64,000 bases of DNA from a virus: positions 32,001 through 96,000 of the IMG/VR virus record IMGVR_UViG_3300025888_000011; one strand, written 5' to 3'. This document shows, piece after piece, positions 1,787 through 30,900 of the stretch (the first letter of the stretch is position 1; every line of letters starts with the position of its first letter). The notes under the pieces were generated by a model, which made no database searches, was not told the origin of the DNA, and saw only the letters and a list, made by a program, of their open reading frames with translations. The position numbers and the translations under genes were made by a program.

Positions 1787-2335
1787 TTATCTTACTATTG
1801 ATAACCCTTTTAATATTTTTTCCATTTGTGCTATTCTTTTATAAGGTCTGTTACTTCCATTTACCCATTGTACAAAACATTCTGCAAAGTTTTCCATATA
1901 GTTTACATTAGCATATTTTGACTTGCCTGCTATATCAAATTTAATCATTCTATCATTCAAGTATGTTTCATGTATATAATGTCCTATCTCATGTATTACA
2001 GTATCTTCATCATATTTAGTTTCTTTTAATGTTATACATTCTCTGTAGTAAAATCCTAGTGTTTTTTTACTATCTCCTAAACTTTCCATTTCGGAATCAG
2101 CAATGATTTTTATTGTTGGTATTTTAATGTTTAATTTTGCAAGAACTTCCTTGACAGCCTTTTCTGATTTTGTTAAGTTTTCTATTATTTCAACTTCTGA
2201 AGCGTCTATACTGTAAAAATCATTTTCAGTTTCAATGTGTATTACATTATTTCTATCTGTGCAATCAAATACTTTACCTATCATACCATTAAATTTTACT
2301 GTTTTATTTAAATATTTTTCTATGTTGTTTTTCAT
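1787..2335 (-). CDS. zincin-like metallopeptidase (HExxH)
   Basis: VIHEIGH plus downstream Y...ENFAECF third-ligand motif. Confidence 0.7.
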   Translation of the reverse strand: MKNNIEKYLNKTVKFNGMIGKVFDCTDRNNVIHIETENDFYSIDASEVEIIENLTKSEKAVKEVLAKLNIKIPTIKIIADSEMESLGDSKKTLGFYYRECITLKETKYDEDTVIHEIGHYIHETYLNDRMIKFDIAGKSKYANVNYMENFAECFVQWVNGSNRPYKRIAQMEKILKGLSIVR

Positions 2336-2510
2336 TTTTAAAACTCCTTTTGTCTTAACTGCTTATTCTCATAAGTCAGTGACTTATTTAAGTTTTAAAA
2401 ATGAAGCGTTGCACCATCTACGGATACACTCGGATTTTAATTGGTCACTTCATTTTTAGGATTGTAACGCATCCCTGCAAGTAGTAAATTAATTCCTTAC
2501 TACAATTACT

Positions 2511-2539
2511 ATTATACTGATATTTTATATTATTGTCAA
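2511..2539 (-). promoter_or_regulatory. sigmaA promoter
   Basis: TTGACA-17 nt-TATAAT, near-identical to the promoter at 1697-1725. Confidence 0.8.
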
Positions 2540-3448
2540 CACTATTTAAAAATTCTTTTTATATTGTTTTATTAATTTAAAGTTTTATTTTTGTTTATCT
2601 TCTTACTTTATTATATGTTGAACTGTGTTAAATAGTACCTAATTATAATGTTATTCTAAAATAAAGTTGATATAAATATTATGTGATTATATTAGTTAAG
2701 TGATTGATTGTAATACTATTACAGAGTATCTAATGGCTTATATAAGCGTTATTATGAGTATGTTAATATAATTGTATAGAGCAATATAATAGATAGACTA
2801 ATGATAATATATGTTGACTGAGTAATGTATAAGTAATGTAATGATAGTAACATAGTGTTCCTTTATATAATATAGTTATATATGATTGCATATCAATAGA
2901 GTAGTGACTACATAAATTAGTGTTACTATTACATTATAAGTATGTTAGGCAAGACGTGAGTGAGTAAGTGTTAGTATATTGTATATACTATATGATTAAT
3001 GTATGACATAAAAGCCAGTGATAGTGTGTTAGATAATACCAATAGTATAATAGTATAAGAGATAACCTAATAAGGTATATAGTATTATAGTATGTGTATA
3101 GTAGTGTTAAGTGTATGGTAGTTAGTTTGTAAGATAGTATATATAATTACTATATAAATAGAGATAAGTATATAGGATAAGTGTATTAGTTATATAGCAC
3201 ACCAATAGATTAATATAATAGTAGCATAATAGATAAGATAGATTGAGATAAGGTATAAGATAGTATCATATGATATGTTATCTATATAGTAATAGCATTG
3301 TAGTATAAGAGTAATGGTATATATGTGTTGTGTATGATATAGTCATATGTTAGATGCTCTATTAAGTATATAGTAATAGCATTGATATAGTTAATAAGTT
3401 ATCAATAGGTTGTGCATATATGTAACAGATAAAGATAATAGATAGTAA

Positions 3449-3654
3449 TATACCCTATATAGGTATAAGATAATAGATAGTAGTATATATGTGTTTAACG
3501 TAGTGTATGTAACATATTGTTATACCCTTGACTATATATGTATACCTATACTAGGTATAATGATTATTAGTTATATAAACATAAGGTGTGTAAGGTATTA
3601 AGAGACATATAATAAGTATACCCTTTAATAAATTAGGATACCCCTATTGGGTAT
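3449..3654. repeat. three ATACC-N7-GGTAT palindromes
   Basis: TATACCCTATATAGGTATA (3449), TATACCTATACTAGGTATA (3541), ATACCCCTATTGGGTAT (3638). Confidence 0.7.
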
Positions 3655-4630
3655 AGGATATTAAATAGAATACGTCATACTATATAAAAAACTTAATAAC
3701 GATTTTGGGACGTATGCTAATTTTTTAAAATTCAGGTATCCTATTATAATATTAAATGCTAACTAACAATATTTACTCATTAGACTAGCACAACACCTAC
3801 TCATATACGTTCAGTTTAATTAAATCTATCTCTATTTGATTCTAATTGATAATACATACACAAAATTGGGTTAATATTAGAGTAATTTTAATTAATTTAT
3901 TAGTATAAAGGAACAAGTGTTCAATTCTATAGGACTAAATATGTATTTAATAACATAGAATTAGTGTTTTAAGTGGTAAAACTGGTATTATTTTGTGTTG
4001 TAATTATAATTGAGAATGGTTTAAAACGTAGGATATACCATAGATGGGGGCATAATTATCACTTTAGCACTTTAGCGTGGTGACGTATATCCCATGGGTA
4101 CAACAAGGAATAGGCACATCCCAATTTATCATTTCATATATTTCACATTATTTTATTCTCAATCAGCTATATTAATCATTAATTAATTTACTTTCTTATA
4201 AATATTAGTCTTGGTTTTATTCACATAATATTCACATTATATCCTTCTTATATCAAATAATCCCTAATTTAGCTCGTAGAACGTTTCGTAACTATGTAGG
4301 GAATATAACACCTAATCCCATTTTAAACCTCTTAGAATTAACCTCATATATTGCCCTTTATTATATATCAATCTCCTACAATCCCTTATTATACCTACGT
4401 TTAGTTCGACAACTATATTTATTTTCCTATTTAAACTACTATATTTATAAAACAGGGGCTATAATTTCCATTATAAATCCTTATATACTTTACCTTACAT
4501 CACCTTTTATAAATATAAACAAAATAATATTCAATTAATCTATAATAATTTTACATAAAAAAATAAAATAGAAAGTGTTTTCTCTCTATTTTTAGTAATA
4601 AATTAATATCATATAACTTATTTAATTTTA

Positions 4631-4813
4631 TTAATTAAAGTTATTTTCCTTTTCTCTTTTACTCATTGAATAAACTTGACTAAAAAATACAATTGTCATT
4701 ACAACTAACATTATAATATCATTCTGTACAATATATACAGATATAAAATATAATACTAATAATTGATTTAAACTCAATAATATTTTTACATAATCCATTT
4801 CCCTATTTCTCAT
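4631..4813 (-). CDS. small two-TM membrane protein
   Basis: 60 aa with two hydrophobic segments. Confidence 0.5.
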   Translation of the reverse strand: MRNREMDYVKILLSLNQLLVLYFISVYIVQNDIIMLVVMTIVFFSQVYSMSKREKENNFN

Positions 4814-5002
4814 TCCCTATAATTATCTATTCTCGTATGTATTATATTATAAAACTAAATTAATATACTCTTATCTCATTTGGTAATTATTTCAGACACA
4901 TAAACATGTTCTAGCAAAATAAAAAAGTAGAAGAATAAAATTAATCTCCTACTTAAAACTTATGTATTATTATATTAACATTAACATTTCAAAATAAATA
5001 AA

Positions 5003-5164
5003 TTAAACTCCTAATCCTCTTTTTAACAAACAAATATATTCTTCTATTTTCTTATATACAATTATTTCAATTAAATAAACTTTATTAATAAATTCCCTTT
5101 TCTTTATTTCTCTATTTAAATTTTTATATTGTTTTATATATTTAATCTTATCTCTATATTCCAT
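5003..5164 (-). CDS. small basic hypothetical protein
   Basis: 53 aa MEYRDKIKY...RGLGV, AGGAGG RBS; below ORF-track cutoff. Confidence 0.5.
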   Translation of the reverse strand: MEYRDKIKYIKQYKNLNREIKKREFINKVYLIEIIVYKKIEEYICLLKRGLGV

Positions 5165-5718
5165 TTATAATGCCTCCTAAGTAATTATATTTTACTTTAT
5201 TTATATTTCAATAATCAATCTTATAATAATAGTATATCACATTCTCAATATTATATACATAGTTTTATATTACTCTAATATATTTATATTCTTTTTAATA
5301 ATGCATTAATTATATTGTCTAGTTTCTTCTGTATTTTACTCTGTTCTATTGATAATCTATTATATTTACAGTTATTATATCAATATTATTCTATATTCAC
5401 AGGGGACTATAATTTCCATTCTAAGCCATTGTAATATAATAGATACTAGTGTACCTAAAATTTAATCAAACAATGTAGGGAGTATTGTATGGGAGGGGGT
5501 TATGAATTCATTAAATATGTTAATCTCTATATATGACTATACCCTTTATGAAAAATAAGTAAATAAAAAAAAGAGTAATATTTCTATCACTCTAATGAAT
5601 ATTATTATATTAAATTATATTTGTCTGTATTTATATTGTCAGATTATTTGACAAAAATATTATTGTCAATATAAATATGGTTATTTATTTCTTTATATAT
5701 TATTGTTATGAGATTATA

Positions 5719-5985
5719 TTATATAGTTGTTTCTATTTTTTCTTTTTTAACAAGCCTTATCACTTTATTTATAACTCCAGTTTTATCAATTATTACTTTA
5801 GTCACTTTATTTAAACTCATTAGAAAAATACATTGTCCAATTAATGGCAATCCTATATAACCTGCTCCTACTAAAACTCCTAATGTAGTATATAAAACAG
5901 TATTGGTAGTTGCTTTTGTATTTATGGCAAGTTGTTCGCACTTAGCTCTTTTCATAATCATATCATCCATACATATATATTTCAT
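5719..5985 (-). CDS. small membrane protein
   Basis: 88 aa, hydrophobic core, AAGGAG RBS. Confidence 0.7.
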   Translation of the reverse strand: MKYICMDDMIMKRAKCEQLAINTKATTNTVLYTTLGVLVGAGYIGLPLIGQCIFLMSLNKVTKVIIDKTGVINKVIRLVKKEKIETTI

Positions 5986-5997
5986 GCTTTAGCTCCT

Positions 5998-6252
5998 TTA
6001 TTTAATAATGTGTAATGTTTTAAGGAAATCTTTCCAACCAGCAAAACTAGCTTTTGTTAATGTTAATAATACAGGGGGATGCGTATTTAAATAATGCATA
6101 TATTGAACGACATCTGTAGCAATAGCACTTACCCCTGTAAATTTAATTAATCTAGCATAATCTTTTTGGTCTAAAGATTTCATTGCAATTTCAGATAATA
6201 AAGTTAATCCAGTAATTTTTATAACGTCTCCTACTAAAAATCCAAATGTCAT
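5998..6252 (-). CDS. SpoIIIAC/SpoIIIAD-like small membrane protein
   Basis: VIKITGLTLLSEIAMKSLDQKDYARLIKFTG resembles the SpoIIIAC pattern IFKIAGIG...GKKEYAQWVTLLG. Confidence 0.55.
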   Translation of the reverse strand: MTFGFLVGDVIKITGLTLLSEIAMKSLDQKDYARLIKFTGVSAIATDVVQYMHYLNTHPPVLLTLTKASFAGWKDFLKTLHIIK

Positions 6253-6288
6253 AATATTCTCCTTATTATTATTTGTTGAGAGATTGTG

Positions 6289-6477
6289 TTAAAGATTTCT
6301 AAGAGCTTTAAAGAATCCCACAGTTGTAGTTATAACTGTTACTCCTGCTATAGCAAATCCTGTCAATCTAATATATTGTGCATAATCCTCTTTACCAACC
6401 TTCTGGCATATACCTTCTGCAAAAGCACTTATAACACCTGCACTTGCTAAAGTTATTATTGAACTTGCTAATCCCAT
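6289..6477 (-). CDS. SpoIIIAC-like small membrane protein
   Basis: 62 aa, GVISAFAEGICQKVGKEDYAQYIRLTGF; length and GKE(D/E)YAQ motif match SpoIIIAC. Confidence 0.65.
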   Translation of the reverse strand: MGLASSIITLASAGVISAFAEGICQKVGKEDYAQYIRLTGFAIAGVTVITTTVGFFKALRNL

Positions 6478-6577
6478 AATATATTCCTCCTTATGAGAAC
6501 TTCTATATAATCCAAAACCTACAACACTATATAGATTTTGAGTTATATAGAAGTTTCCCTCTATATATTTTTTGTGA

Positions 6578-6910
6578 TTATGAATGCCATTTGTGTCTTA
6601 ATTGTTTTGCTGTTTTAAAATCAATAATATTACTTTCTCCATTTATGACTTTCTTTTCAATTTGTTTTACATTTTTCTTAGTTTTACTTAAATATTTATT
6701 TGTTGATTTTCCAATATTATATACTCTTTTACTTAAAATTTTTATTACTCTTAGAACTCCTCTTATTGATAAATAAATGTTCTTAAATGTTATAGCAATT
6801 ATTTTACCTAAAAGAGTATGAGCTAAAAATAATTTTGTTACAAAACCTACAATAATTAATGCAATACTCATCTGTAACAGTTCCTTTATTATTTGAATAA
6901 TAGTGTTCAT
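6578..6910 (-). CDS. membrane protein with basic C-terminus
   Basis: 110 aa, N-terminal TM, AAGGAG RBS. Confidence 0.7.
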   Translation of the reverse strand: MNTIIQIIKELLQMSIALIIVGFVTKLFLAHTLLGKIIAITFKNIYLSIRGVLRVIKILSKRVYNIGKSTNKYLSKTKKNVKQIEKKVINGESNIIDFKTAKQLRHKWHS

Positions 6911-7714
6911 ATTTATCTCTCCTTAGTTTTTTAAAAATTATTAATCATAAGTTTGTAAAATAAAATCCTTTGTATATAGATATTTTAATTTCTAATTTTG
7001 CAAATAATCTATATTCGATATTTAAATTCTATTGAATAAGTCTCATATAATTTTTATAAATAAACTTTATTGCTAACATTTAATTATAAATATCTATTAT
7101 CTATAATTAGTATTACTTAATATGTTTTAAGACCATTATGCCCTGCCCCTTATTAGACTATATAACTATAGAAATAAATACTATAATTAAAGTAACAATA
7201 AATCTATTTATAAAACTATATAAATCATTCAAGGAATTAAATATGAACAAATTATTTCTAATAGACTTATAAAATATCTACAAGCTTTTGTATCCTTAAA
7301 TTCCTTTGTATACTATATAGTATTCCTTATAGTATATTTAGTTACAATATTTGAATAATTTATGATAATTATTTTTTAGTAACCTAAGTGGATTTTATTG
7401 TTATATAATATTTTGGTAATATATTCTTTATATAGATATGTTTAAGTATAATGGTATTTTAAACTATGGCAATTTTGGAATATTGTGGAGAAGTTATTTA
7501 TTTTATAAATAAAGTTTTTGTGTGAAGCAAGATATTCGTTTCACTCACTCTTATCTTATTGTAATTATTTTTTATTGATATAACTATGTTTATAGGGTGT
7601 AATTAAGTGTCTGTAGAGTAATAAGGTATATTATAGGGTATAACATAGAGTAATGATTAATTGAGGTTATTAGATATACTATAGGTTGCTTAATTCGCAT
7701 ATCTATTTTAGACA

Positions 7715-7748
7715 TAAAAATATCCTAACTAAATTAATAGCTAGGATT
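7715..7748 (-). terminator. intrinsic terminator of FtsK/relaxase operon
   Basis: ATCCTA(A/G)CT inverted repeat followed by a T-run on the minus strand. Confidence 0.55.
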
Positions 7749-7772
7749 GAATTTTAGATTTGAAATATATCA

Positions 7773-8366
7773 TTATAAGAATATCTCAGAGAAATTTTTT
7801 AGACTATAGTCTAATCTAATTACAGGATATATTTTGGTATTATAATTCTTATGAGTTCTATCATCAATCAAAATCATTCTTGGTATTTTACCTTCACAAG
7901 CATGGATGATTTCATCCTTCGCGTTATCAAATCTATCTAGGTTGAGACTGTTATTGCTTTTATTTACTTCTATTAAATTTCTAAATCTAAAACCACCATA
8001 TTCATATATCATAAGAGCATCACTTCTCAACTTTCCATTCATCCATTGCCTTTCTAATTCAAACTTTTCAATATTTGCACCACTAGCGAGTAGTTTGCAG
8101 TAATAATCCATTAAATATATTCTATGAGGTGAATTAGATATCTTTTTTACGTCTGTATCAATATCTACAAATAATTTTATTTTTAAAGCTGTATTAGTTA
8201 TTATTTTAAGTCTATGCTCAATCTTACATAATCGTTGAAGCCTACATCTGCTGTATTCGTATCCTCTCTTCATATCAGGGAACGCTATAAGTCTTGCTTC
8301 CTCTATACTTATAAATGAGTATTTCTCAATATGTCTTAGTATTAATCTATCTTTTACTGTTATCAT
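7773..8366 (-). CDS. replication-relaxation (Replic_Relax/MOBC-like) protein
   Basis: N-terminal wHTH-like KDRLILRHIEKY, H motif, RSDA...LIEVN nuclease core; overlaps the FtsK stop. Confidence 0.7.
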   Translation of the reverse strand: MITVKDRLILRHIEKYSFISIEEARLIAFPDMKRGYEYSRCRLQRLCKIEHRLKIITNTALKIKLFVDIDTDVKKISNSPHRIYLMDYYCKLLASGANIEKFELERQWMNGKLRSDALMIYEYGGFRFRNLIEVNKSNNSLNLDRFDNAKDEIIHACEGKIPRMILIDDRTHKNYNTKIYPVIRLDYSLKNFSEIFL

Positions 8367-9985
8367 TTTATTATCTTCTCCTTTCCTGTTTCTTTAGGTG
8401 GACTCCACTCCACATAACCTTCAATATTTTTTGTGTTTTCTTTTACAATATTATTTAATTCCTCTACACTTGTTGATTCTACATCAATATATTTAGTTTC
8501 TGTTAATAATTTATTATATGATTCTGCGTCATGATTATCTCTTCTTGTTTTAAAATCCATTATTCTTTTTTCTAGAATATCATTCTGCTTTTTTATTTCT
8601 CTCTCTAATTTTTTATTTTTCTTATTTAATTCTTTTTCTCTCTCAATTATTTCTTGTTCTTTTTCTTTAAGTTTTTGTTCATATGATATATCTTCCTTTC
8701 CTGAAGTATCTTCTTTTTTAGGATTAGTTTTCTTTAATCGTTCTACATCATTAAAAATATTGCTATGATTAGGGTTAAGTTTATCCTTTATAAATTCCAT
8801 AATCATAGGGTCATCGATGAAGGGGGTTTGTAAAAAATCATAAGCTAATGTTTTATATACAGCTACCCTTCTTGGTAAATCTAATGCTATTTGGCTATCA
8901 TCCGTAGCAACTTCACTAGATTTTGAATTTGATGCACGGAAAGCTATTTTCAAATTAGATAATGACTTGATAAAACTGTTTAATAGTACTGCCGTAGGTT
9001 TCTGTAAACAACTTATTAAGAATAAATTATTAGACCTTCCATATTGTGCTAAAGAGGCTAACAAATCATCTACAATTTTCTTTTTTTCTTTAACATTTTT
9101 ACTATCAGAACCTTTTTCAGCAATACTAGCCATTTCATCAATACACACCCAAATAGTAGGTTGTTTATTGTTCTCATGGAGTCTATTATAATCAGTAATA
9201 TTACTTCCTAATCCTTTCTGTTTAATAGTAGCAACTAATTTTGTCCTTCTCTTATTTTCTAATTCTAAATATTGTAAAATAGTCACAGCTTTATCTAAAT
9301 CGTCTGCAAATCCCTTACAAATCGTAGCATCCTTATAAAGTAATAAATCACATTTATCTAATTGTATTAAGAAAAGTTGTAAGTCTTTTACATCATGATT
9401 ATATACTTGCGTTGCTAGAGAACAATCTAACAATTTTGATTTACCTGTGCCTGTTGTGCCTGAAAGTAATACTTGACACCATTTATTTAAATCAATAATA
9501 ATAGGAGTTCCATCAAACATATCACCTATATATATTTCCCAAGGTTCTGTTTTTGGTGGAGAAAACTTCTTATTCATAGTTATTTTAGTTACTATCCTAA
9601 TGTCCATAGATAAATCTAATCTTTCTTTATTATATATAAAAATACATTGTAGTCCGTCTTCAATTTTATCTTGTATAGTTTTTAAAGATGAAAAAGTTAA
9701 ACCTTTAGGACAATGTAATCTTGCTTTAAATCCAAACTCCTCATACTCTATCTTAGTGAAAGTAAATGTTTTGTTATCTGTAGTATATGTTTTAGTTTGG
9801 TACATAATATCTTTCCAATCCTCAATCAACTTTGCTATTTTAGTTTTTTTATCTTTCTCAATTTTCTTTATATCTTTTAATTCCTTATTCTTTTTAGCTT
9901 TATCTAATTGTATAATCTTTTTGTTTATATTAGATTTACTTAATACTTTCTTTTTACCATTAAGATGCTTTGAAAAAAGTTTCAT
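8363..9985 (-). CDS. FtsK/SpoIIIE-family ATPase
   Basis: Walker A GTTGTGKS, Walker B VCIDEM, QYGRS...LQKP motifs. Confidence 0.9.
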   Translation of the reverse strand: MKLFSKHLNGKKKVLSKSNINKKIIQLDKAKKNKELKDIKKIEKDKKTKIAKLIEDWKDIMYQTKTYTTDNKTFTFTKIEYEEFGFKARLHCPKGLTFSSLKTIQDKIEDGLQCIFIYNKERLDLSMDIRIVTKITMNKKFSPPKTEPWEIYIGDMFDGTPIIIDLNKWCQVLLSGTTGTGKSKLLDCSLATQVYNHDVKDLQLFLIQLDKCDLLLYKDATICKGFADDLDKAVTILQYLELENKRRTKLVATIKQKGLGSNITDYNRLHENNKQPTIWVCIDEMASIAEKGSDSKNVKEKKKIVDDLLASLAQYGRSNNLFLISCLQKPTAVLLNSFIKSLSNLKIAFRASNSKSSEVATDDSQIALDLPRRVAVYKTLAYDFLQTPFIDDPMIMEFIKDKLNPNHSNIFNDVERLKKTNPKKEDTSGKEDISYEQKLKEKEQEIIEREKELNKKNKKLEREIKKQNDILEKRIMDFKTRRDNHDAESYNKLLTETKYIDVESTSVEELNNIVKENTKNIEGYVEWSPPKETGKEKIIK

Positions 9986-10208
9986 TCTTCTTATTTCCTC
10001 CTACTCTATTACTTATTCGTTGTTGAATTTTTTTAGACTTAACTATTCTATCTGTAATATCATAAAAAACTAATTTATCTACATTTTTCTTCCAAACTCC
10101 TTTTACATATATATAAGTTCCAAATCCTACTAGAAATACTGTAGAAGCCCCAATTTCTATAGCATGAGCAAGTAATATTGCCGATATAGTTCCTATCATA
10201 ATTTTCAA
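9960..10208 (-). CDS. small membrane protein leading the FtsK operon
   Basis: 82 aa, two hydrophobic segments, AAGGAG RBS, TTG start. Confidence 0.65.
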   Translation of the reverse strand: MKIMIGTISAILLAHAIEIGASTVFLVGFGTYIYVKGVWKKNVDKLVFYDITDRIVKSKKIQQRISNRVGGNKKNETFFKAS

Positions 10209-10231
10209 TCTCCTTTATAAACTATTAGTAA

Positions 10232-10261
10232 TACTATATGTTATTCAACTATTTAAAGTAT
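10232..10261 (-). promoter_or_regulatory. sigmaE/sigmaK-like sporulation promoter
   Basis: AC-17-CATATAGTA (also ATA-18-CATA) upstream of the FtsK operon. Confidence 0.45.
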
Positions 10262-10281
10262 TGTGACAAAATAAAGTTTAA

Positions 10282-10311
10282 GTATAAATATTAAAGTATC
10301 TGCACATAATA
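10282..10311 (+). promoter_or_regulatory. sigmaG-like promoter
   Basis: GTATA-18 nt-CATAATA matches GNATA-18-CATNNTA. Confidence 0.55.
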
Positions 10312-10336
10312 ATTTTGATTTGAAGGAGGTTTTAAT

Positions 10337-11062
10337 ATGAGAGTATCAAAGTATTTATTTCCTACCTCACATAAAAATAGGCGTATATATAGAAAGGCTA
10401 AGTCTGATGTATTTTCAGCGTTTGGAATGATAAAATTAATTTGTAAAATAATAATTTATATAGTATCAGGTATAATAGGAGTAGTTATTTTAAGTTCAAG
10501 TTTTATATATAAGCTTGTTAAAAGAATTAAAGATTATAATCACTATAAGAAAAATGGTTTTTCGTATTTGAAAATTTATAAAGATATTACTCAATTATCA
10601 GGAAGAAGTTTTGAAATATTAATGTATGAATTATTTAAAGCAAATGGATATAAGGTTTATATGACTCAAGCTACTTGTGATGGTGGCAAAGATTTAATTC
10701 TAATTGTTGATGGTGTGGAAACTTATGTAGAATTGAAAAGGTGGAATGGTGGTTGGCAAGTTGGGAGACCTGAAATTCAAAAATTATTAGGATCAGCAGT
10801 TTGCGATGGAGTTAGAAAATGCTTATTTATCACAACAGGAAGTTACAATACTAACGCTCTAGAATGTTCTGCCAAGACAGATATGATTGATTTATGGGAT
10901 ATGGAAGATATAATGAAATTAATTAATGATACTGATATAGATAAAATACCTTGGATTATGAGCAAAGTAATGGAATATAATGAGGAAGATATATTAAAGA
11001 AAATCAATAATTTCGGTGAAAAAGTTGATAAATATACTAATAATTTAGATAAACAGTATTAA
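10337..11062 (+). CDS. Mrr-like restriction endonuclease domain protein with TM segment
   Basis: LSGRSFE...DGGKDL...VELKRW...VG.PEIQKL.GS...FITTGSY Mrr_cat pattern. Confidence 0.85.
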   Translation: MRVSKYLFPTSHKNRRIYRKAKSDVFSAFGMIKLICKIIIYIVSGIIGVVILSSSFIYKLVKRIKDYNHYKKNGFSYLKIYKDITQLSGRSFEILMYELFKANGYKVYMTQATCDGGKDLILIVDGVETYVELKRWNGGWQVGRPEIQKLLGSAVCDGVRKCLFITTGSYNTNALECSAKTDMIDLWDMEDIMKLINDTDIDKIPWIMSKVMEYNEEDILKKINNFGEKVDKYTNNLDKQY

Positions 11063-11086
11063 AAGAGCGATTATATGCTCTTTTTT
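11061..11086 (+). terminator. intrinsic terminator
   Basis: AAAAGAGC/GCTCTTTT stem plus T-run. Confidence 0.7.
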
Positions 11087-11600
11087 GCTTTATTTGGTAA
11101 TATTCCTCATTATATCTAGTGAAGTTAATTTTGTAACGAAAATAAGCCTACTATAAGCATTTAAATCAATTCTAGGTACAATTATATATCCTAAAATTAA
11201 AGTTGCTTACAATGTGCTTAAATGAGTTTTGAATGGATACCTATTTGTGACATCCTTATACATAAATAATTACCTCATTATATAGATATGTATTTATACC
11301 TTTAATGCCTATTGAGTAGCATTATATATAATTAATATCTATTAGTTTTACAATATAATCATTATCAACTAATGAATTTCATATACATTTATACAATATC
11401 GTTAATTACTATTTCTACCCAACTCTATACATTAATAACTAATGAATGGCAATAGTAACCATTGTATGGCATATACAATCACTTATATACATTGCTTGTT
11501 AACTATTGCTATTGATATTATATGAATTATATTGATAATCTATTGTAACCAAATTCATTCTATGGTAATATAATGTTATTAGGAAAAGAAAACTAGATAC

Positions 11601-11942
11601 TTGGAGGTGGCAAGCTTGCAACAAGAGTTTAATAAATTAGAAATCGCTATTCTTTATATGTTGTATGATAAAGAAAAATTCACAGCCTTAACTTCATGTC
11701 AAATTAAAGATTTTTTAACTGATGAGGGATTCTTATCAAGATTTAAAGTAACAACCTCATATAATACAATGGTTAGAAGAGTTAAAAGTCTACTTGAACA
11801 GGAATATATCTCTTTTGGATATAAAGAGGGGAATGCTCAAACTTATTTTTTAAATGCAAAAGGAGTAGAATGTATAGAACATGAATTAATTGAAAATGGA
11901 ATTATTGAAAATGATATCGAAGATATAGAAGGAGGTAATTAA
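11601..11942 (+). CDS. tubR: TubR-like winged-helix partition adaptor (likely start TTG 11616)
   Basis: wHTH signature SYNTMVRRVKSLLEQEYI..G.K...TYFLN.KG; directly upstream of tubZ. Confidence 0.7.
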   Translation: MEVASLQQEFNKLEIAILYMLYDKEKFTALTSCQIKDFLTDEGFLSRFKVTTSYNTMVRRVKSLLEQEYISFGYKEGNAQTYFLNAKGVECIEHELIENGIIENDIEDIEGGN

Positions 11943-11943
11943 T

Positions 11944-13107
11944 ATGAATCGTACAGATTTCACTTTGTTGGGGTGTGGAGGCGGAGGCGGTAAGGTTGTT
12001 GATACCATCGTTAACCAAGACTCAAAATTTATGAGTTACTTTATTAATGCATCCAAAACAGATATTGAATCATTAGACAATTCTGATGATATTGCTGTGA
12101 ATTATACTTGTATTGCAAATCAAAGAAATGGAATGGGACGTGACCGCAATCTTGGAAAAAGATATGTTTCTAAAAGAGGCATGAATCTATTAGAAGTAAT
12201 CGATAATTTTGATACATCTGTTGTATACGTAGTATTTACTTTTGGAGGTGGTTCTGGGAGTGCTATAGCTAGTATTTTATTAGCAGGTATACAGAAATTG
12301 AAGGATATTGAAAACTTTGATAAAACTATTAATATTATAGGTATATTACCAAGCATTGATTCAAGCACCGAGGTTCTAAAAAATTCAGTAGAAACTTGGA
12401 ATGAAATTATGTCATATACTTGTATTAATAATATGATTTTTATAGATAATAACAACACAGTAAATGGTGAATACTTAGAAGAACAAGAAATAAATGATAG
12501 ATTTGCTGAAATGTTCGATTCTATATTTGACATTCCTAATGTGAATGGAAGAAATTTTGATAATGGGAATCTAGGCAGAATCTTAAATTCTGAAGGATGT
12601 ATGTATATTTATGATTTACCTGATGGATGTAATAATGCTAACTTAGCTCTAAAACAAGCAGATACAAATAGTGTGTTGGCTAAGATGTATGAGTCTAAAG
12701 AGAGTATAGACATAGATAAAGATGGCAATAAAAAAATCAAGTGTGGGTTTATAGGTACTTCATTCAACAATGAAAATTATACACATAAAGATATTTTAGC
12801 AAAATATAAATCTAACAAAGAGGATTTTGAGGGATATAATGAAGATAGTAATTTAGTTTTAATCTCAGGATGTTTACCTCCCCTAGTATCAATTCAAGTA
12901 ATTCAAGCTGAACTAAAAGATAGAGAAAAAGTAGAAATATGTAATGATAAAACTGATTTTAAATCATTTATAGTTGAGAATGACAGTGAGAAAGAATTGA
13001 ATACAAACTACAAAGAGATTAAAGAGCATAAGCCAGTTGCACAACCACAAGTTAAAACTAAGACTAAAAAGAAAGCTATGAAGAAAAATATATTTGATAT
13101 GCTTTAA
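11944..13107 (+). CDS. tubZ: TubZ tubulin/FtsZ-like partition GTPase
   Basis: GCGGGGG, GMGRD, GGGSGS tubulin signature, NFDNGN T7-like loop, basic tail. Confidence 0.9.
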   Translation: MNRTDFTLLGCGGGGGKVVDTIVNQDSKFMSYFINASKTDIESLDNSDDIAVNYTCIANQRNGMGRDRNLGKRYVSKRGMNLLEVIDNFDTSVVYVVFTFGGGSGSAIASILLAGIQKLKDIENFDKTINIIGILPSIDSSTEVLKNSVETWNEIMSYTCINNMIFIDNNNTVNGEYLEEQEINDRFAEMFDSIFDIPNVNGRNFDNGNLGRILNSEGCMYIYDLPDGCNNANLALKQADTNSVLAKMYESKESIDIDKDGNKKIKCGFIGTSFNNENYTHKDILAKYKSNKEDFEGYNEDSNLVLISGCLPPLVSIQVIQAELKDREKVEICNDKTDFKSFIVENDSEKELNTNYKEIKEHKPVAQPQVKTKTKKKAMKKNIFDML

Positions 13108-14516: not shown

Positions 14517-16268
14517 ATGTTAATAGCAAAGAATTCAAAAATGAAAATGGTTAAAATTATTGATAGTGTTGAGGAAGATACATATACATGTCCATTGTGT
14601 GGAGAGAAGCTAACGAGGAACTTTGGGATTTTACGCCAGTACTATAGTCATCCGATGGGTAAGGGAGAAAATTGCGAATATAAACTTAAACTAATGTTAA
14701 AAGATAATCCTACTGAATTCATAGAAAGTGATTTAAGTATTCTAAGAGACCAATATTATAATAAGAAATTTACAGATGTAAAAGTTGAAATGTCTGATTT
14801 AATTTCAGATGAGGGATACCCATTAACTCAACAACAGAAAGATATAATTTATTCTACAGAAGATAAAATAAAAGTAACAGCTTTAGCAGGTAGTAGTAAA
14901 ACAACAACCCTTTATTATTATGCAAAAGCTAGAAGCGATAAGAAGATTCTGTATTTGGTATATAATAAATCTCAACAATTAGAAGCACAAAATACATTTG
15001 GTAAGCTTGGCAACGTTGAAATTCGTACAGTACATAGTTTAGGTTATGCTTATGTTGGAAGGTTTTATAGAAATAAATTAACCTTTGGATATAATGCCAT
15101 TGACGTTATGAAAGATATGGATATCAAATGGGAGAACCAAGAACTCGCTGTTAAGATTTATGAAATGTTTAAAAATTATATGCTATCTGAATTTGATAAA
15201 TTTGAAGACTTAGAGACTTTCAAAGGTGATAAAAATAGAGAAGTTATAATATCGTATTGCTATAGATTATGGGAACTTAAAAAAGACTTAAAATCTAATG
15301 TAAAAGTGGAGCATGATTGGTATCTAAAATCGTTTCAGCTTATGCGTAAGTCTCTTGATAGAAAGTATGACATACTACTAATCGACGAAGTACAAGATAG
15401 TTCGATGCTTGTGTTTGATATAATTAAGTCTTCCAATGTAAAGAATATATGTATGGTTGGTGATATTTTTCAGAGCATTTATTTGTGGAGATGTAGTTGC
15501 AATATCATGCCTTTGTTTAAAGCAAAAGAATACAAACTAACAACTTCGTTTAGAGTAAGTCAAAACATAGCCAATATTGCTAATATGATTATTGAAGACG
15601 TAAATGATACAAAAATAGGAATGACAGGATTTAATACTGAACAAACTATTGTAGAAAAGATTGATAAGACAAAGCCATATGCTTGTTTGTGTAGAACTAA
15701 TTCAAGTTTATTCGGTGAAACAATAGACGCTCTGAATCATGGAAAGAAAGCATTGTACTATGAAGGAGGTTATAGTGGATATAATTTTAATAACATATTA
15801 GATTGCTATAATTTTCAACAAGGAGATAAAGTAAAGAATCCATTATTCAATAAATTTAAAAATTATTCTAAAATGGAAGAGTTCGCAGAACAGAATAAAG
15901 ATATTGAATTATTATCTTTAATGAGAATGGTAGATAAATATGGGATGGATGTACCTGAGTTAATACATAAGATAAAATCAAGCACTACTACTAAAAAAGA
16001 TAAATTAGATTGCTATTTTTCAACTATACATAAATCAAAAGGAAGCACAATTGAAATACCATTGTTAATATCTGACGACCATTTTGATATAGAAGATTAT
16101 TTTGATAAGAAATTCTTAGGTATTGGAGTATTAGATAAAACCAAAAACTACTATGAAGAAATGTGCTTGATATACGTGGCTATAACGAGAGCGAAGGCAA
16201 GCATAGTTTTAAGTGATACTCTTAAAAAATACTTGGTGTTAAGATATAAATTCAATAAAAATAAATAA
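14517..16268 (+). CDS. UvrD/Rep-like SF1 helicase with N-terminal zinc finger
   Basis: CPLCG...H...C; ALAGSSKTT, IDEVQD, VGDIFQSIY, TIHKSKG, YVAITRA. Confidence 0.9.
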   Translation: MLIAKNSKMKMVKIIDSVEEDTYTCPLCGEKLTRNFGILRQYYSHPMGKGENCEYKLKLMLKDNPTEFIESDLSILRDQYYNKKFTDVKVEMSDLISDEGYPLTQQQKDIIYSTEDKIKVTALAGSSKTTTLYYYAKARSDKKILYLVYNKSQQLEAQNTFGKLGNVEIRTVHSLGYAYVGRFYRNKLTFGYNAIDVMKDMDIKWENQELAVKIYEMFKNYMLSEFDKFEDLETFKGDKNREVIISYCYRLWELKKDLKSNVKVEHDWYLKSFQLMRKSLDRKYDILLIDEVQDSSMLVFDIIKSSNVKNICMVGDIFQSIYLWRCSCNIMPLFKAKEYKLTTSFRVSQNIANIANMIIEDVNDTKIGMTGFNTEQTIVEKIDKTKPYACLCRTNSSLFGETIDALNHGKKALYYEGGYSGYNFNNILDCYNFQQGDKVKNPLFNKFKNYSKMEEFAEQNKDIELLSLMRMVDKYGMDVPELIHKIKSSTTTKKDKLDCYFSTIHKSKGSTIEIPLLISDDHFDIEDYFDKKFLGIGVLDKTKNYYEEMCLIYVAITRAKASIVLSDTLKKYLVLRYKFNKNK

Positions 16269-18588: not shown

Positions 18589-20571
18589 ATGAGCGAAGAA
18601 ATAACAATATATAATTCAACAAAGGAACTAAAATTACAAAAGATAGATAGTTTGTCTCAATTAGCAATTAATAGATTAACTGAGTTTAATAAGAATCCAC
18701 TTGGAGAAAAATATGAATTAGCAATAAGAGAATTAGTTAAATACATATTATTTTATACTAATAAAGAAAAGATAATAGCATTCCCCATGTCGACAGGTAG
18801 TGGGAAAAGCACAATCACAGAGTTATCAATGGCTTATATGTACAATGATGACCTATTTAAAAACTATTGTGGGACTATTATATTAAAACTTACTAGAGAT
18901 GATTGTAATTCAACTGCTATCAATATAAATAAGTATGCTAATAAAGAAATTGCTTATGCTTATCATGGAGGAGATGTTGAAAATGGTAAGGCGAATGATA
19001 TAACCATTGAAGATTTACAGACTTACCCAATACTAATAATGACACACGAGGGTTATAAATCATTTGTAGACAGGAAAGAAATTAAGACTAAAAGTAAAAG
19101 AAAAAAGATAGATATAAATGATATTTACGAATGGACAGATAAAAGAATAGATAAATTAACTGTAAATTACAATATATTTACTAGACAGAGATTAATTATT
19201 GACGAGGAAATATCAAACGTAGAAACTGTAGCAATCAATATAAAAACTATAAATATTATTGAGAATGCCATTATGAATATGGGAAACAATGATTTATATG
19301 ATGTTTTTATGAGTTTTATTAACTCGATAAAGAAAGAGTTTATAAAATCTTATACAGAGAAAGCTAATAAACTTAATTTTGTTTATTTTGAGAATATAGT
19401 TAAACCTGAAGGAATGGATGAGGCTATATATGATTCTAAGGATTATAAAGCTAGAGAATGCTATATAAATATATTAAATTTATTAGAACATGGTGGTTAC
19501 GTTAGATATTCAACTGAATTAGAAAATAAAAGTATAACAACATTCAAATACATAGATATTTATAATCCTAGATTTGCTAAATTACAATTAGATGCTACAG
19601 CAGATGTAAATAAATTATATATATATAATCCACATTATGAAGTTAAGGAATTACCTGAATTCAAAACATATAAGAATACATATTTACATATATATGATAA
19701 AGTAACTGGTTCAAGAAGTTCATTAATTGAAAATTTCGATTTAGGAATGCTTCAAGCATGTATAAAAGACATAGGAGAAAAACTTCTCAAAGGGGAAAAG
19801 GGGCTTATAGTATTTAATAACAAACAATTGGAATATGGATTCTATGAGGAAATTCAAGGTACAGATTTAGTAGGAAGAGTATGGATTACACATTATGGAT
19901 TAACTACAGGAAGTAATCAATGGAAAGATTATGATAAAGTATTTGTATATGGATTAAATATAATGAGTGATGCTATATACCCTATATTATATCACTGTAA
20001 TAGTATGGAAGAAGACTTTAATAAATATGACACTATGTTAATTCCAAAGAAAGGCTCAAGAGCATATGCAGAAACTAAATTTGAAGAAGTTAGAGTTGGG
20101 TTAGTCTCCTCAGCAATAATACAAGCAATTAATAGAATTAAAATAAGAAAATATTGTGACGGTGATACACCCGAAACTCATATTTATATGCTCAATAGCG
20201 ATAAGAGTGTTGATAATATAATAAAAGGAAGCATGAAAGGCATTAATATTCTATATGATTGGCAATTAGATTTTACTCCACCAATAAAAGAACGTAAATC
20301 TAAAGTAGAAGATAATACACTAAAAATAATAAACTATTTAAAATTTCTAATTGAAAATCCTGAGTCAAAATTTGTATGTGAGTTAAAGAATGAGAATATA
20401 TTAACAGATAAAGGAATTAAGAAAAAGGATTTAAGAGAAGGACTTGATTTTGCTAATAGACCTGCGTTTAATCGAGCATTAGATAAACCAATTTTCACTC
20501 AGTTTTGTATTGATTATAATATAGATATGAGTAATAAAAATAACAAATACATAGGCATGACAATAAAATAA
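18589..20571 (+). CDS. SF2 (DEAD/DEAH-like) helicase-domain protein
   Basis: PMSTGSGKST, ILIMTH, LIIDEE, LDATA, GSN, IQAINRI motifs. Confidence 0.75.
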   Translation: MSEEITIYNSTKELKLQKIDSLSQLAINRLTEFNKNPLGEKYELAIRELVKYILFYTNKEKIIAFPMSTGSGKSTITELSMAYMYNDDLFKNYCGTIILKLTRDDCNSTAININKYANKEIAYAYHGGDVENGKANDITIEDLQTYPILIMTHEGYKSFVDRKEIKTKSKRKKIDINDIYEWTDKRIDKLTVNYNIFTRQRLIIDEEISNVETVAINIKTINIIENAIMNMGNNDLYDVFMSFINSIKKEFIKSYTEKANKLNFVYFENIVKPEGMDEAIYDSKDYKARECYINILNLLEHGGYVRYSTELENKSITTFKYIDIYNPRFAKLQLDATADVNKLYIYNPHYEVKELPEFKTYKNTYLHIYDKVTGSRSSLIENFDLGMLQACIKDIGEKLLKGEKGLIVFNNKQLEYGFYEEIQGTDLVGRVWITHYGLTTGSNQWKDYDKVFVYGLNIMSDAIYPILYHCNSMEEDFNKYDTMLIPKKGSRAYAETKFEEVRVGLVSSAIIQAINRIKIRKYCDGDTPETHIYMLNSDKSVDNIIKGSMKGINILYDWQLDFTPPIKERKSKVEDNTLKIINYLKFLIENPESKFVCELKNENILTDKGIKKKDLREGLDFANRPAFNRALDKPIFTQFCIDYNIDMSNKNNKYIGMTIK

Positions 20572-21803: not shown

Positions 21804-22955
21804 ATGAGTAATGTAGTAACCAAAGGTACTGCTAAAGTGTTTAAATACAACGCAGGAATAGAAAGTATTGTAGATGGTGGAACGGTTCAGTTACCTTTTA
21901 TATCTGAATATAAAGGTGATAGAAGAACTGCAATGGAATATATATGGTTTACTAAAGATGCAAGTGGAAATCTTTGCAAAAGAGGTATATACGTGAGTGG
22001 GCATGGTCAATATGGAGTCCCAACACTATATGATTCAGATGTATATATGGCATTACAAGATATATTTCTACGTAAAAAAACTGTGAATGGTATATGCGAG
22101 TTAGAATTTAATTCTTTGTCCGTAGATTATTTAAATATTGAATTTTCTATGAATGAATTAGCTAGAGAAATGGGTTATATATTACCAATAGGAAAGTCAA
22201 CAAGAGAACTCTTAAAAAAATCAATAAAAACATTACTAGCAACAACAATGTTTTCTTTATATGAAGGTGGAATTTATGACATAAGGCATAAGCAATATGT
22301 GACTAAAAAAGAGGTAGGATATCATTTATTAGAAGAATATGGAAATGAAGTTACTACCGAGGACGAAGAAGTTATTGTTGATATTATGCATATTAGATTA
22401 AGTAAATTCACTTACTTACAAATAGTAAACGATTATAAACTTTTTTATAATAAAAACAAATATAGGAAACCTAAAAATAGAATAGCAAGAAAAATTTATA
22501 TTATGGCTCTACAATGGAAGGGCAATAAAGACTTTGCTTATGCTAAAATAGATACTTTAATTGAGAAGATACCTATGATAGAAGAGGATAAGAGATATAA
22601 AAAAAGATATATTAAAAAAGCACTAAAAGCATTAAATGACAGTGGAATTATCAAGGCTAATTGTGATAAGAATGATTTAGTGTATTTTGATTTTAGAGAG
22701 CAAAAACAAATAGATGAATACAAGAATAAATATAATAAATATTCAGATATAACAACTAAATTATACGATATGGGATTTAATATGCTAGAAGTTGATGAAT
22801 TAGTGGATGTTGAAAGAATAAGATTTATACAAGCATTGCTAAGATATCTAGATTTTCAAAAACCTTTAAAACCTAAGAGATATTTTTTGAAATGTTATAA
22901 TGAGAATATTGAAATTGATAGAGGTTTCTATAGTGAAAATAGTTTAGTACTGTGA
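21804..22955 (+). CDS. plasmid-type replication initiator protein
   Basis: GVPTLYDSDVYMAL...FSMNELAREMG...LKKSIKTL wHTH initiator pattern; flanked by iterons on both sides. Confidence 0.8.
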   Translation: MSNVVTKGTAKVFKYNAGIESIVDGGTVQLPFISEYKGDRRTAMEYIWFTKDASGNLCKRGIYVSGHGQYGVPTLYDSDVYMALQDIFLRKKTVNGICELEFNSLSVDYLNIEFSMNELAREMGYILPIGKSTRELLKKSIKTLLATTMFSLYEGGIYDIRHKQYVTKKEVGYHLLEEYGNEVTTEDEEVIVDIMHIRLSKFTYLQIVNDYKLFYNKNKYRKPKNRIARKIYIMALQWKGNKDFAYAKIDTLIEKIPMIEEDKRYKKRYIKKALKALNDSGIIKANCDKNDLVYFDFREQKQIDEYKNKYNKYSDITTKLYDMGFNMLEVDELVDVERIRFIQALLRYLDFQKPLKPKRYFLKCYNENIEIDRGFYSENSLVL

Positions 22956-27998: not shown

Positions 27999-30900
27999 AT
28001 GGTAAATCGTCAATTATTTACAATGAAATTTAAGTCCACGAGACTAAAAAAATATAAGTACGATATAACTATCAACTATCAAGAGGCTTTAGACAATAAT
28101 GAAATAATAGCTCTAGCAGATTCTCAAATACTTAGGACGATAAGAGATGTTATTGCTGAAAAAGGAGGTGATTCTAGTAGAATATTAGATAGAGAATTAT
28201 TAGAAGAATTTTATCATGAAATTAATATAATAAGGAGAAAGAAAAGAAATACAACTGAAGACACTTTAAATAATGTTATGAAAATAAAAGAAATAAAAGA
28301 TAAAATAACCAACATGTGCTTCGTACCAGAATACATAACTATTGTAATAGAAGACATAAGTCATTATGATTATTTATATGAGAATGGACTAACACTTAAC
28401 GGAGTAGTTTATTATAGGCTCTCAGTATCGGCAGGGCAAGGGAGAGTATCTACTGTAGTATTTTGTTCAAGTGATATATTAGAGACGGTAAATACAATAT
28501 TAGACAACGGTAGGAACAAGGAACAAGTATTCTCACCTTCTAAATTTAATGCATATAAAGGTACATATAGTTCAGCAACAAAACCTGTAACAACTCCTAG
28601 ATTTTGTGTAGTACCTGATTTTGAATCGCCTACTACATTTGATGTTAATTGGGTTACAGAAACAAAAGGAGAACTAGACGATGAGATTAAACCAAAAACA
28701 ATAACAAAGAATTTTAATAGATGGGACGGAATGGGAATTATTTCTCCTACATTTGCCAAACAATGGGCAGATGATTTAGAGTTAGATTACATTCCTGCTG
28801 AATTTTGCACCCGTCAAAGTTATTTAAAAGGTATGTTTGGGGTGTTTGATTTTCACGAGTTTTGTGAGATTAAGAATAATGGAAATTATATAACTAAATC
28901 AGTTTATAAAGATAAAGAGGGCAATGATATAGAAATTGATTTAAGGGATTATGATATGATTGTTACGGAAGGACAATTTAAACTTTGGAACTCATTTAAT
29001 AGTTTAGAACAATATAAAAAAAATTGTGAAACTAATAATCTTAAATGGGGAGTAGCTTTATATACAGATAAAGAATTAAAAAATAATTTAAAATATAATT
29101 ACCAATTTTTGCAATCGTTAAATATAAAATCTAAAGATGTTCCAAAATTATGTGAAGAATTTATTAACTGGATACAAGGAGTTAGTACAGATGATGTATG
29201 GTATTCAATATTGTTTTTAATGGGTGTAAATGTAACAGAAACCTCTATAATGAATTATTTAAGAGATAGTAAAAACTATTGGGTAAAAAGTTTAATTATA
29301 AATCATGATTTAATAAATGATAAATATGTAAAACAAAAGATATATAATCTTATAAAAACTAAAATTGACAAAGGGTGTATGGGAAGTATAATCTTAACAG
29401 GTAATAATCAAACTTTAGTGTCAGACCCTTATGCTATGATGGAGTATGTGTGTGGCATGGAGGTAAAAGGATTGTTAGGGAAGAGAAAATACTACTCAAA
29501 CTATTGGAACGAAAGAGGAGTAACGGAGATATTAGGAACAAGACCACCACTGACTTATAGGTCAGAATGTTTAAAGATGGAATTAGAAAACACAGAAGAG
29601 CAAAGATATTGGTATAAACATATGTATGGTGGAATTATTGTAAATGTTCATGGATGCGAAACAGATAATTTTGCAGGTAGTGATAAACTTAATGTCACCA
29701 TTATATAGTAATATATAATGTAAAACTTGGTGAACCTATAAATATAGGGTGTGTCGAAAGATGCTAACGGTGAAACTCTAAGGTTAAAGTGTGTGTTAAA
29801 TTGATAATATAATAATATAAAAGGAGGTGAAATAATGAATGATTATTACATATATGAATGGTTTAATATAGAAACGGATGAAGTTTTTTATGTAGGTAAG
29901 GGCAAGAAAGGAAGACATAAGATAATTACAGGGAGGAATCCTTATTTCACAAATTATTATAATAAATATAATTGTGAAAGTAGAATAGTGTTTAATAATT
30001 TAACAGAATTAGAAGCATTTGAATTAGAAATTAAAACAATAAAAAGATATAAAGAAAATTGTCTTTGCAAGTGTAATTTAACAGAGGGAGGAGAACAACC
30101 TCCGACATTATATGGAAAAGATAATGCTATGTATGGAAGACCTTGGTGGGATGATAATACGCCTATAGAAAAAATTGAAAAATGGAGAAAAAGTAGATAT
30201 TCTTTCGGGTGTGGTGAATTAAATTTACAGTTTGGGATTTCACCAAAAGATAGAATGGATAAGGATACATATGAAGGATGGAAAGAAAAACATATTGGTT
30301 TAGGTATAGGAGAAAATAATTCTCAATATCAAGTGTCTCCGAAAGATAGAATGGATGAGAAAACTTATCTTCAATGGAAGGAAAATCATAAATTTATAAT
30401 TGGAGATAAAAACCCTAATGCAAAATGCGTAAACATGTATGATATTAATAATAAATTATATAAAAGTTTTACATACATAGGTGACTGTGTTAAATTTCTA
30501 ATTGATAATAATATTACAATATTCAAAGAGAATACAATAAGAACAAAAATTAGAAATTCATCATCAGAAACTATTCCTTTTGAGGGATATTATTTTAAAG
30601 TAATATAAAACAAACACACATTTAACTATGACAATACCGTGCCAAGCCCTAACAATATAGTTTATTCTATGTTAGTGGAAGGTGTAACGACTAAATTGGG
30701 TTGTATAACGCCCTAAGAGGGTAAATTTAGGCGAAAATCCTTATCCCGTAGTGCCAAGCATCCTATTTAATTGAGGATGAAGAGATAGTCTAGTCCGACT
30801 TCGTTAAGAAGTGTTAAAGTATTACGAAAGTAACGGTGTACACGTTTGATTTTGACTTTTTGTCAACAACTTCCAATTCTGTGATAGTAAATTCAACTTA

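Follow-up and report, generated by a model that had tools for sequence, protein, structure and literature searches.

A clostridial version of the phage DNA translocation operon with distant homologues of SpoIIIAC

A seven-gene block in a large Clostridium phage

We analyzed a stretch of 64,000 nucleotides, hereafter called the window, that corresponds to bases 32001-96000 of the IMG/VR record IMGVR_UViG_3300025888_000011. This record is 141 kb long, around 74% complete, has around 25% G+C, and comes from a large Clostridium phage. We focus on a block of seven minus-strand genes at positions 5719-10208, which is made of two units. The first encodes a small transmembrane (TM) protein, an FtsK/SpoIIIE-family ATPase, and a protein of the Replic_Relax family. 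The second lies beyond a long spacer and encodes four small proteins, two of which are related to SpoIIIAC. An original prediction, made by a model from the nucleotide sequence, had described seven open reading frames (ORFs) here. All were recovered where it had placed them, and its gene identifications were right, including the difficult assignments to Replic_Relax and SpoIIIAC. The block is a clostridial version of the 'DNA translocation operon' found in phages. The operon of FtsK, MobC-like protein, and membrane anchor was already described in 2012, and the new part is the cassette of SpoIIIAC-like genes. Our literature search found no publication linking SpoIIIAC homologues to phages.

The order of the block is kept in 12 elements, with protein identities of 26-80%. 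The nearest named relative of the window phage is the Clostridium phage c-st (AP008983), where CST192-CST197 are the gene-by-gene orthologues of the block, with protein identities of 26-33%, and are annotated as hypothetical or 'FtsK/SpoIIIE-like'. The neighbours are also the same in the two phages: CST191-188 match the genes across the divergent promoter region, which encode an Mrr-like nuclease, TubR, TubZ, and a TubY-like MerR protein. In contrast to the window, c-st is devoid of the 88-aa gene that ends the block, and its spacer is unrelated in sequence apart from being palindromic. The succession of anchor, ATPase, Replic_Relax, spacer, 62-aa and 84-aa genes was also found in three metagenomic elements (L008, L053, and L055), in Clostridium sp. 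UBA2485 (L015), and in C. muellerianum P21 (L016). The block matched no near-identical public phage or plasmid by megablast against phage and plasmid collections, and a search of viral contigs with the Replic_Relax alignment gave no related loci.

The original prediction treated the two units as one system, and the data uphold this linkage. Aside from the conserved order in the 12 elements, it is seen when starting from the second unit: the SpoIIIAC-like profile alone gave strong matches in 9 of 397 Clostridiaceae genomes, and FtsK and Replic_Relax genes adjoin the SpoIIIAC-like gene, with the spacer, in all five of the strong-match genomes newly examined. The phage-type SpoIIIAC-like gene stands beside FtsK and Replic_Relax in every genome examined.

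Two distant homologues of SpoIIIAC

The second unit encodes proteins of 110, 62, 84, and 88 aa (w110, w62, w84, and w88). They had been described as four small membrane proteins, which agrees with the TM-like segments of w110, w62, and w88 and fails for w84, where no segment exceeds the threshold (Kyte-Doolittle). The proposed resemblance of two of them to SpoIIIAC/SpoIIIAD was confirmed. The two-TM protein w62 (6289-6477, minus strand) is like the members of these families (PF06686, TIGR02848) in size, in its two hydrophobic helices, and in a loop motif, GK-x-[DE]-Y-A...G, which it has in common with SpoIIIAC. It matches TIGR02848 over the full length with 31.7 bits (E = 1.5e-7; curated cut-off 56.65) and PF06686 with 23.0 bits (cut-off 24), and its orthologues reach 17-18 bits in the curated SpoIIIAC-model test. 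For comparison, TIGR02848 gives 72-97 bits for the true SpoIIIAC and 22-27 bits for the true SpoIIIAD of 31 Clostridiaceae genomes. When the profile of the phage w62 family was aligned with that of 27 clostridial SpoIIIAC using hhalign, we obtained P = 9.6e-9 and a probability of 95.7% over 63 columns, to be compared with 0.4 for the reversed control and 4e-5 for SpoIIIAC against SpoIIIAD. The reciprocal search gives a consistent picture, with the w62 family profile recovering chromosomal SpoIIIAC in around 160 of the 397 Clostridiaceae genomes, and the Atlas cluster of w62 bears the automatic name 'SpoIIIAC/SpoIIIAD family'. A tblastn search of the 62-aa protein against phages and plasmids gave no match, probably due to the low-complexity filter and the shortness of the query, and does not demonstrate absence.

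The gene of the 84-aa protein (5998-6252, minus strand) always directly follows that of the 62-aa family (p62). The two proteins share PHROG 17166, and hhalign relates w84 to the p62 family with P = 2e-6 and to SpoIIIAC with 1e-3, making it a paralogue of w62 and a member of the SpoIIIAC superfamily by transitivity. Its orthologues in the elements L077 and L078 match an HMM (hidden Markov model) of SpoIIIAC that we built at 3e-9. From these profile comparisons we conclude that w62 and w84 are true but distant SpoIIIAC homologues and diverged paralogues; we regard them as distant homologues and not as equivalogs because the scores lie under both curated cut-offs. Unlike SpoIIIAC, they are phage-borne, encoded outside the spoIIIA operon, and paired with a DNA pump instead of SpoIIIAA, SpoIIIAB, and SpoIIIAE-SpoIIIAH. 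The hosts carry spoIIIAC and spoIIIAD elsewhere; spoIIIAC is present in 11 of the 12 genomes matching Replic_Relax, yet also in 79% of the sampled phylum, a frequency that makes the co-occurrence uninformative as to a restriction to spore-formers.

The two other proteins of the unit flank this pair. The 110-aa protein (6578-6910, minus strand), the orthologue of CST195, combines a TM helix at its N-terminus with a strongly basic tail (21 K+R). It is kept in L008, L015, L053, and L055, weakly in L080, and had no match in our family searches. The 88-aa protein (5719-5985, minus strand), the last of the cassette, has a TM-like segment at residues 30-56 and orthologues in L008, L015, L053, and L055; neither c-st nor the minimal versions of the block have it. 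Comparisons with hhalign revealed no likeness of w110, w88, or w82 to SpoIIIAC or SpoIIIAD.

A phage-borne w62 that mimics SpoIIIAC over its full length, including the GK-x-[DE]-YA motif, brings to mind a manipulation of the host. The SpoIIIAC-like pair would enter the host SpoIIIA complex, alter or block it, and shift the fate of the forespore, with the pump and the nuclease serving a separate purpose. Phages of spore-formers do carry sporulation regulators (PMC3601020). We nevertheless find this scenario very unlikely, as it leaves unexplained why the SpoIIIAC-like genes occur only beside FtsK and Replic_Relax.

The ATPase, its putative anchor and the Replic_Relax protein

The first unit begins with an ORF at 9960-10208 (minus strand), for which the ATG at 10199, behind AAAGGAG, is the likely true start. 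The resulting 79-aa protein (9960-10199) has one N-terminal TM helix, with a TM-like segment at residues 1-29 (Kyte-Doolittle), and a basic tail. It is kept in L053, L055, L008, and L015, and more weakly in L077, L078, and L081. We propose that it serves as the membrane anchor of the ATPase. The predicted complex of this protein with residues 1-400 of the FtsK-like ATPase scored 0.51, against 0.14 for the best control, with at least 97% of the contacts in agreement between runs and a predicted local distance difference test (pLDDT) value of at least 65 for the partner. In our calibration, 58 of 80 solved complexes attained the mark, as against 2 of 110 mismatched pairs, and scores up to 0.60 were given to only 7 of the 80 solved complexes as well as to both passing mismatched pairs. 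The model thus lends weak support to an anchoring role.

The second gene (8363-9985, minus strand) encodes a 540-aa ATPase of the FtsK/SpoIIIE family and of the TcpA coupling-protein type. It matches PF01580 (E = 1.5e-13; 51.2 bits for a cut-off of 24) and phrog_1358 'FtsK/SpoIIIE-like' (3.7e-47), and has a Walker A motif, GTTGTGKS, at residue 176, a Walker B motif, IWVCIDE, at residue 278, and a charged coiled-coil-like tail at the C-terminus. We detected no TM segment in it, and no gamma-domain family among its Pfam matches at E <= 1. The best solved relatives are the chains 6o1w-z, named 'DNA translocase coupling protein' (E = 3.5e-16), with FtsK behind at 7e-12. We take these chains to be TcpA of pCW3; the search gave the molecule name only and the papers did not confirm it.

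The third gene (7773-8366, minus strand) encodes a 197-aa protein that the original prediction had assigned to Replic_Relax (PF13814). The profile check is negative for the protein itself, which has no Pfam match even at E <= 1, and positive for its family: an exhaustive HMMER search with a profile of its close homologues retrieved 219 representatives, and 46 of the 102 that were aligned match PF13814, the best at 1.3e-10. The AlphaFold2 (AF2) model of the protein (pLDDT of 93) has as best match an ESM-Atlas 'Replication-relaxation' cluster, with a TM-score of 0.91. The N-terminus is predicted to be a winged helix-turn-helix (wHTH; Z = 9.6), and the C-terminus gives weak matches to the restriction-endonuclease fold (E = 2e-3, Foldseek). 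Homology and predicted fold thus identify a divergent member of the Replic_Relax (MOBC-type) family, with a winged helix at the N-terminus and a nuclease domain of the PD-(D/E)XK-like type at the C-terminus. Among the homologues, (S/P)D116 and E133 are each conserved at 98%, H81 at 91%, and E105 at 68%; conservation does not extend to the lysine of the ExK motif. The protein is probably an active nuclease.

These three genes are translationally coupled: the 3' end of the 79-aa gene overlaps the start of the FtsK-like gene by 26 nt, and the stop of the latter overlaps the start of the Replic_Relax gene (ATGA). Four homologues of the 197-aa protein are natural FtsK_SpoIIIE-Replic_Relax fusions, of which P0116 has both Pfam matches above the cut-off. 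As these fusions show, the Replic_Relax protein and the ATPase work together. The arrangement recalls the septal DNA pumps SpoIIIE/FtsK, in which a winged-helix DNA reader comes after a motor of the RecA type bearing Walker A and B motifs. In the block, the place of the gamma domain is taken by a Replic_Relax wHTH, separate or fused, as the reader. In contrast to SpoIIIE/FtsK, there is neither an N-terminal membrane domain nor a gamma domain, which in the cellular pumps reads KOPS/SRS, and a nuclease-like domain is part of the reader.

The spacer as a candidate cis site

The gap of about 860 bp noted between the two units measures 862 bp (6911-7772). Within it, a terminator-like hairpin followed by a T run (7722-7747, minus strand), the only such site in 5400-10400, closes the first transcription unit. 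The spacer has a conserved core (6957-7291), an AT-rich imperfect palindrome whose apex carries the GC-rich motif AAGGGGCAGGGC at 7140-7151, which occurs once in the window. The core is 74.6% identical to that of L008 over 342 nt, whereas the flanking proteins are just 46-50% identical. It is thus more conserved than the proteins around it, which we count in favour of the delivery hypothesis presented below. The self-inverted match covers 304 nt (6977-7280), the predicted DNA fold is a long hairpin (z = -2.8), and a TAAGG...CTTAA apex centres palindromes of 170-260 nt in six elements. A spacer of at least 400 nt lies 3' of the Replic_Relax gene in all elements. By self-alignment, the copies of L015, L016, and L079 exceed mononucleotide shuffles and that of the window does not; because of the latter, we treat the palindrome as a lead only. 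With this proviso, the spacer is a candidate cis site for the Replic_Relax protein and the pump.

We looked for other functions of the spacer. An Rfam scan of 4000-12000 returned chance-level miRNA matches only, and hence the spacer contains no known RNA family. A hydrophobic mini-ORF at 7157-7276 (minus strand), which overlaps the palindrome's left arm, is uninterrupted in L053 (54 aa) and L008 (around 39 aa), frameshifted in L055, and interrupted by an in-frame TAG in the window; we did not count it as a gene. In a related phage lineage, represented by L008 (and L009-L013), the enlarged spacer contains a small acid-soluble spore protein (SASP) gene (PF00269) on the opposite strand, at 7271-7432 of L008, an observation that we also place on the side of the delivery hypothesis. 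Neither a SASP gene nor a sigma70_r2 gene was found in the 141-kb record.

Relation to conjugation systems and to the Bacillus phage operon

The pairing of an FtsK-like coupling ATPase with a wHTH DNA-processing protein is also that of TcpA with TcpM/TcpK in pCW3 and of the MOBC systems (pAD1 TraX, CloDF13 MobC), where the relaxase-type protein has a restriction-endonuclease-like fold, as is predicted for the 197-aa protein. Unlike in these systems, the ATPase of the block lacks a TM domain of its own, and no channel genes of a type IV secretion system (T4SS) were found. The latter had been part of the original prediction and stands within the scope of our search, as no AAA_10/VirB4-type gene (PF12846, the sole T4SS family searched) was matched in the 141-kb record, which is around 74% complete.

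The closest precedent is the 'DNA translocation operon' of the Bacillus phages 0305phi8-36, SPO1, Gamma, and GBSV1, whose products are a MobC-like relaxase, a translocase devoid of TM segments, and membrane anchors (Pathria et al. 2012, PMC3357382). The hosts named there are Bacillus and Geobacillus, and the operon is dispensable in the laboratory and of unexplained function (PMC3357382). In the window, as in this operon, a MobC-like wHTH relaxase-type gene adjoins a TM-less translocase and there are separate small membrane proteins. The differences concern the translocase, which is TraG-like in the Bacillus operon and of the FtsK/TcpA type in the window, and the presence in the window of the conserved spacer of at least 400 nt and of the cassette with two SpoIIIAC homologues, neither of which was found in the Bacillus phage checked.

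These similarities raise the question of whether the block is a mobilisation module. A MOBC relaxase would nick an origin of transfer (oriT) in the spacer, the FtsK/TcpA-like protein would act as coupling ATPase, the small proteins would dock the pump, and the genome would hitch-hike through the T4SS of another element. PF13814 counts as the MOBC relaxase family (PMC5357655), the solved proteins closest to the ATPase bear the name 'DNA translocase coupling protein', a palindromic spacer beside a relaxase gene resembles an oriT, and Pathria et al. reached this reading for the Bacillus phages (PMC3357382). Yet, aside from the lack of a VirB4/AAA_10 gene in the record, the block is found in integrated prophages of the ordinary kind and, for Bacillus, in phages that are strictly lytic (PMC3357382), the streptococcal elements with MOBC relaxases use VirD4 and not TcpA-type coupling proteins (PMC5357655), and relatives of SpoIIIAC have no known role in T4SS. 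On balance, we regard mobilisation as unlikely.

Genomic neighbourhood of the block

The TubR-TubZ-TubY genes are back to back with the block in the window, c-st, L015, L053, and L055. FtsK, Replic_Relax, and a TrbC/VirB2-like gene have been reported near plasmid segregation genes, and in Bacillus pumilus phages Replic_Relax and FtsK are often beside plasmid segregation systems (PMC9658697). This setting would suit a role in vegetative maintenance, where the pump and its DNA-binding partner, together with TubZRY, would clear or resolve phage-plasmid copies trapped at the septum and the membrane proteins would only provide anchoring. However, neither TubZ nor Mrr adjoins the block in five further genomes. 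One of these copies is integrated in the chromosome, where it ends a siphovirus-type prophage, after the holin and endolysin genes and before the chromosomal miaB-mutS-mutL. An association with plasmid prophages or with TubZ is therefore not obligatory for the block. Moreover, vegetative maintenance would explain neither the SpoIIIAC homologues nor a nuclease-like domain whose acidic residues are conserved, and we consider it distinctly unlikely. In the relative L055, a Rep_3 (PF01051) initiator gene (1913-3085) adjoins TubY-TubZ-TubR, which shows that the replicon of this phage group is separate from the Replic_Relax gene, and we count this observation too for the delivery hypothesis. The candidate rep gene of the window (21804-22955) has no Pfam match.

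On its other side, the block abuts a region of 2.2 kb (2460-4630) without any ORF of at least 45 aa and with many short repeats such as AAGATAATAGATAGTA. It may be a genome terminus or a packaging region, because in c-st the orthologous block lies around 1-4 kb from the terminal direct repeat at the physical end of the genome. The divergent neighbour, at 10337-11062 (plus strand), encodes the Mrr-like nuclease, which has an N-terminal TM segment and would be tethered to the membrane. A position within about 4 kb of a genome end in c-st, next to a gene-free region in the window, and beside a membrane-tethered Mrr-type nuclease would be in line with an early function, in which the membrane proteins and the pump pull in the rest of a long genome or bar superinfecting DNA. 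Against this, the block follows the lysis cassette in integrated prophages and in Gamma-type Bacillus phages, which is not the first-entering end, and such a function gives no role to the SpoIIIAC-like proteins. We deem entry or exclusion highly improbable.

A possible link with sporulation

The original prediction placed a mother-cell-type promoter at the head of the block. A match is indeed present: a sigma-K/E-type promoter-like motif, AC-N17-CATATAGTA, lies at 10232-10259 (minus strand), where it overlaps a better conserved block, ATATAGTATTACTAATAG. The exact sigma-K-type pattern AC-N16/17-CATAnnnTA occurs upstream of the first unit in four diverged elements (window, L008, L015, and c-st). 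On the opposite strand, a sigma-G-type GTATA-N18-CATAATA (10233-10336, plus strand) precedes the Mrr-like gene, and the same type of pattern is found in L053 and L055; its background is of 4 matches in the window on both strands (128 kb). We read these as suggestive matches rather than as demonstrated promoters. As an alternative promoter we considered the TATAGTAT block and rejected it, since its 25 genome-wide matches are not an enrichment and a convincing -35 element for sigma-A was not found.

The SpoIIIA proteins, which the mother cell produces under the control of sigma-E (PMC3789822), join SpoIIQ in a membrane complex (PMC2703783). FtsK/SpoIIIE genes have been listed among the sporulation-related genes of phages (PMC3601020). 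Because of the homology to SpoIIIAC and of the weak promoter match, our leading hypothesis is that the block delivers phage DNA to the forespore during sporulation, which we see as possible, if short of an even chance. More specifically, some Clostridium phages may have recruited a subunit of the SpoIIIA-SpoIIQ channel, which joins mother cell and forespore, to a conjugation-type pump and a relaxase, resulting in a machine dedicated to moving phage DNA out of the mother cell into the forespore after septation, a version that we hold to be doubtful. Under the leading hypothesis, the Replic_Relax protein would bind the palindromic site in the spacer, perhaps nicking it, and pass the phage DNA to the ATPase ring held at the membrane by the anchor. 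During sporulation of the host, the SpoIIIAC-like pair would position the pump on the membrane facing the forespore, either within the SpoIIIA-SpoIIQ complex or next to it, so that the spore would receive a copy of the phage genome in plasmid, excised, or newly injected form.

Several observations weigh against this hypothesis. The closest relatives lack the exact sigma-K pattern, as L053 misses the -35 'AC' and L055 the 'C' of the -10 CATA; the promoter claimed in the original prediction is thus present as a motif but not kept. The pattern is also common in the AT-rich DNA of this phage, with 22 matches in the genome, and the -10 pattern alone, CATANNNTA, has 104 in the window for 110 expected by chance. 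The scores of w62 under the curated cut-offs and the failure of the window palindrome to exceed shuffled sequences, both described above, belong here as well. The original prediction had the machine move a plasmid prophage into the forespore by plugging into or mimicking the SpoIIIA-SpoIIQ channel. As the block-bearing integrated siphovirus-type prophage shows, the block is not specific to plasmid prophages; furthermore, the DNA of an integrated prophage reaches the spore with the chromosome anyway. FtsK and Replic_Relax occur without SpoIIIAC-like genes in the Clostridium phage LPCPA58 and the Bacillus phage vB_BhaS-171. The SpoIIIA-SpoIIQ complex is not known to pass DNA. Finally, the FtsK-relaxase core is also present in strictly lytic Bacillus phages, and the deletion of the operon in a Bacillus phage leaves laboratory growth unaffected (PMC3357382).

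If the dedicated machine were real, its action would amount to conjugation within one cell and would explain how phages are carried in spores, including relatives of toxin-converting phages. The same block is found in c-st and in other Clostridium prophages, and the result would therefore bear on the stability of their carriage. A real link with sporulation would reveal a new way in which phages are inherited vertically via spores and give a new handle on the function of SpoIIIAC. Without such a link, the block is a further member of a known and unexplained phage operon. In both cases, it provides a concrete set of genes for asking how phage genomes enter endospores and what the 'DNA translocation operon' does.

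Other genes of the phage group

Downstream of the TubZRY genes, the window encodes a UvrD-like helicase (14517-16268), a DEAD-box-like helicase (18589-20571), and a beta-CASP/RMMBL nuclease (35561-36781). A 569-aa ORF (27999-29708) has a weak match to the Pfam family RdRP (PF05183), which is consistent with a single-subunit phage RNA polymerase of the YonO type, and a gene with a YonV_C domain is present on related contigs. In L078, an integrated prophage that bears the block, an AAA_15/AAA_21 ATPase gene and a nuclease-like gene lie between the tail and the lysis genes (4215-6223), a pair that looks like a defence system.

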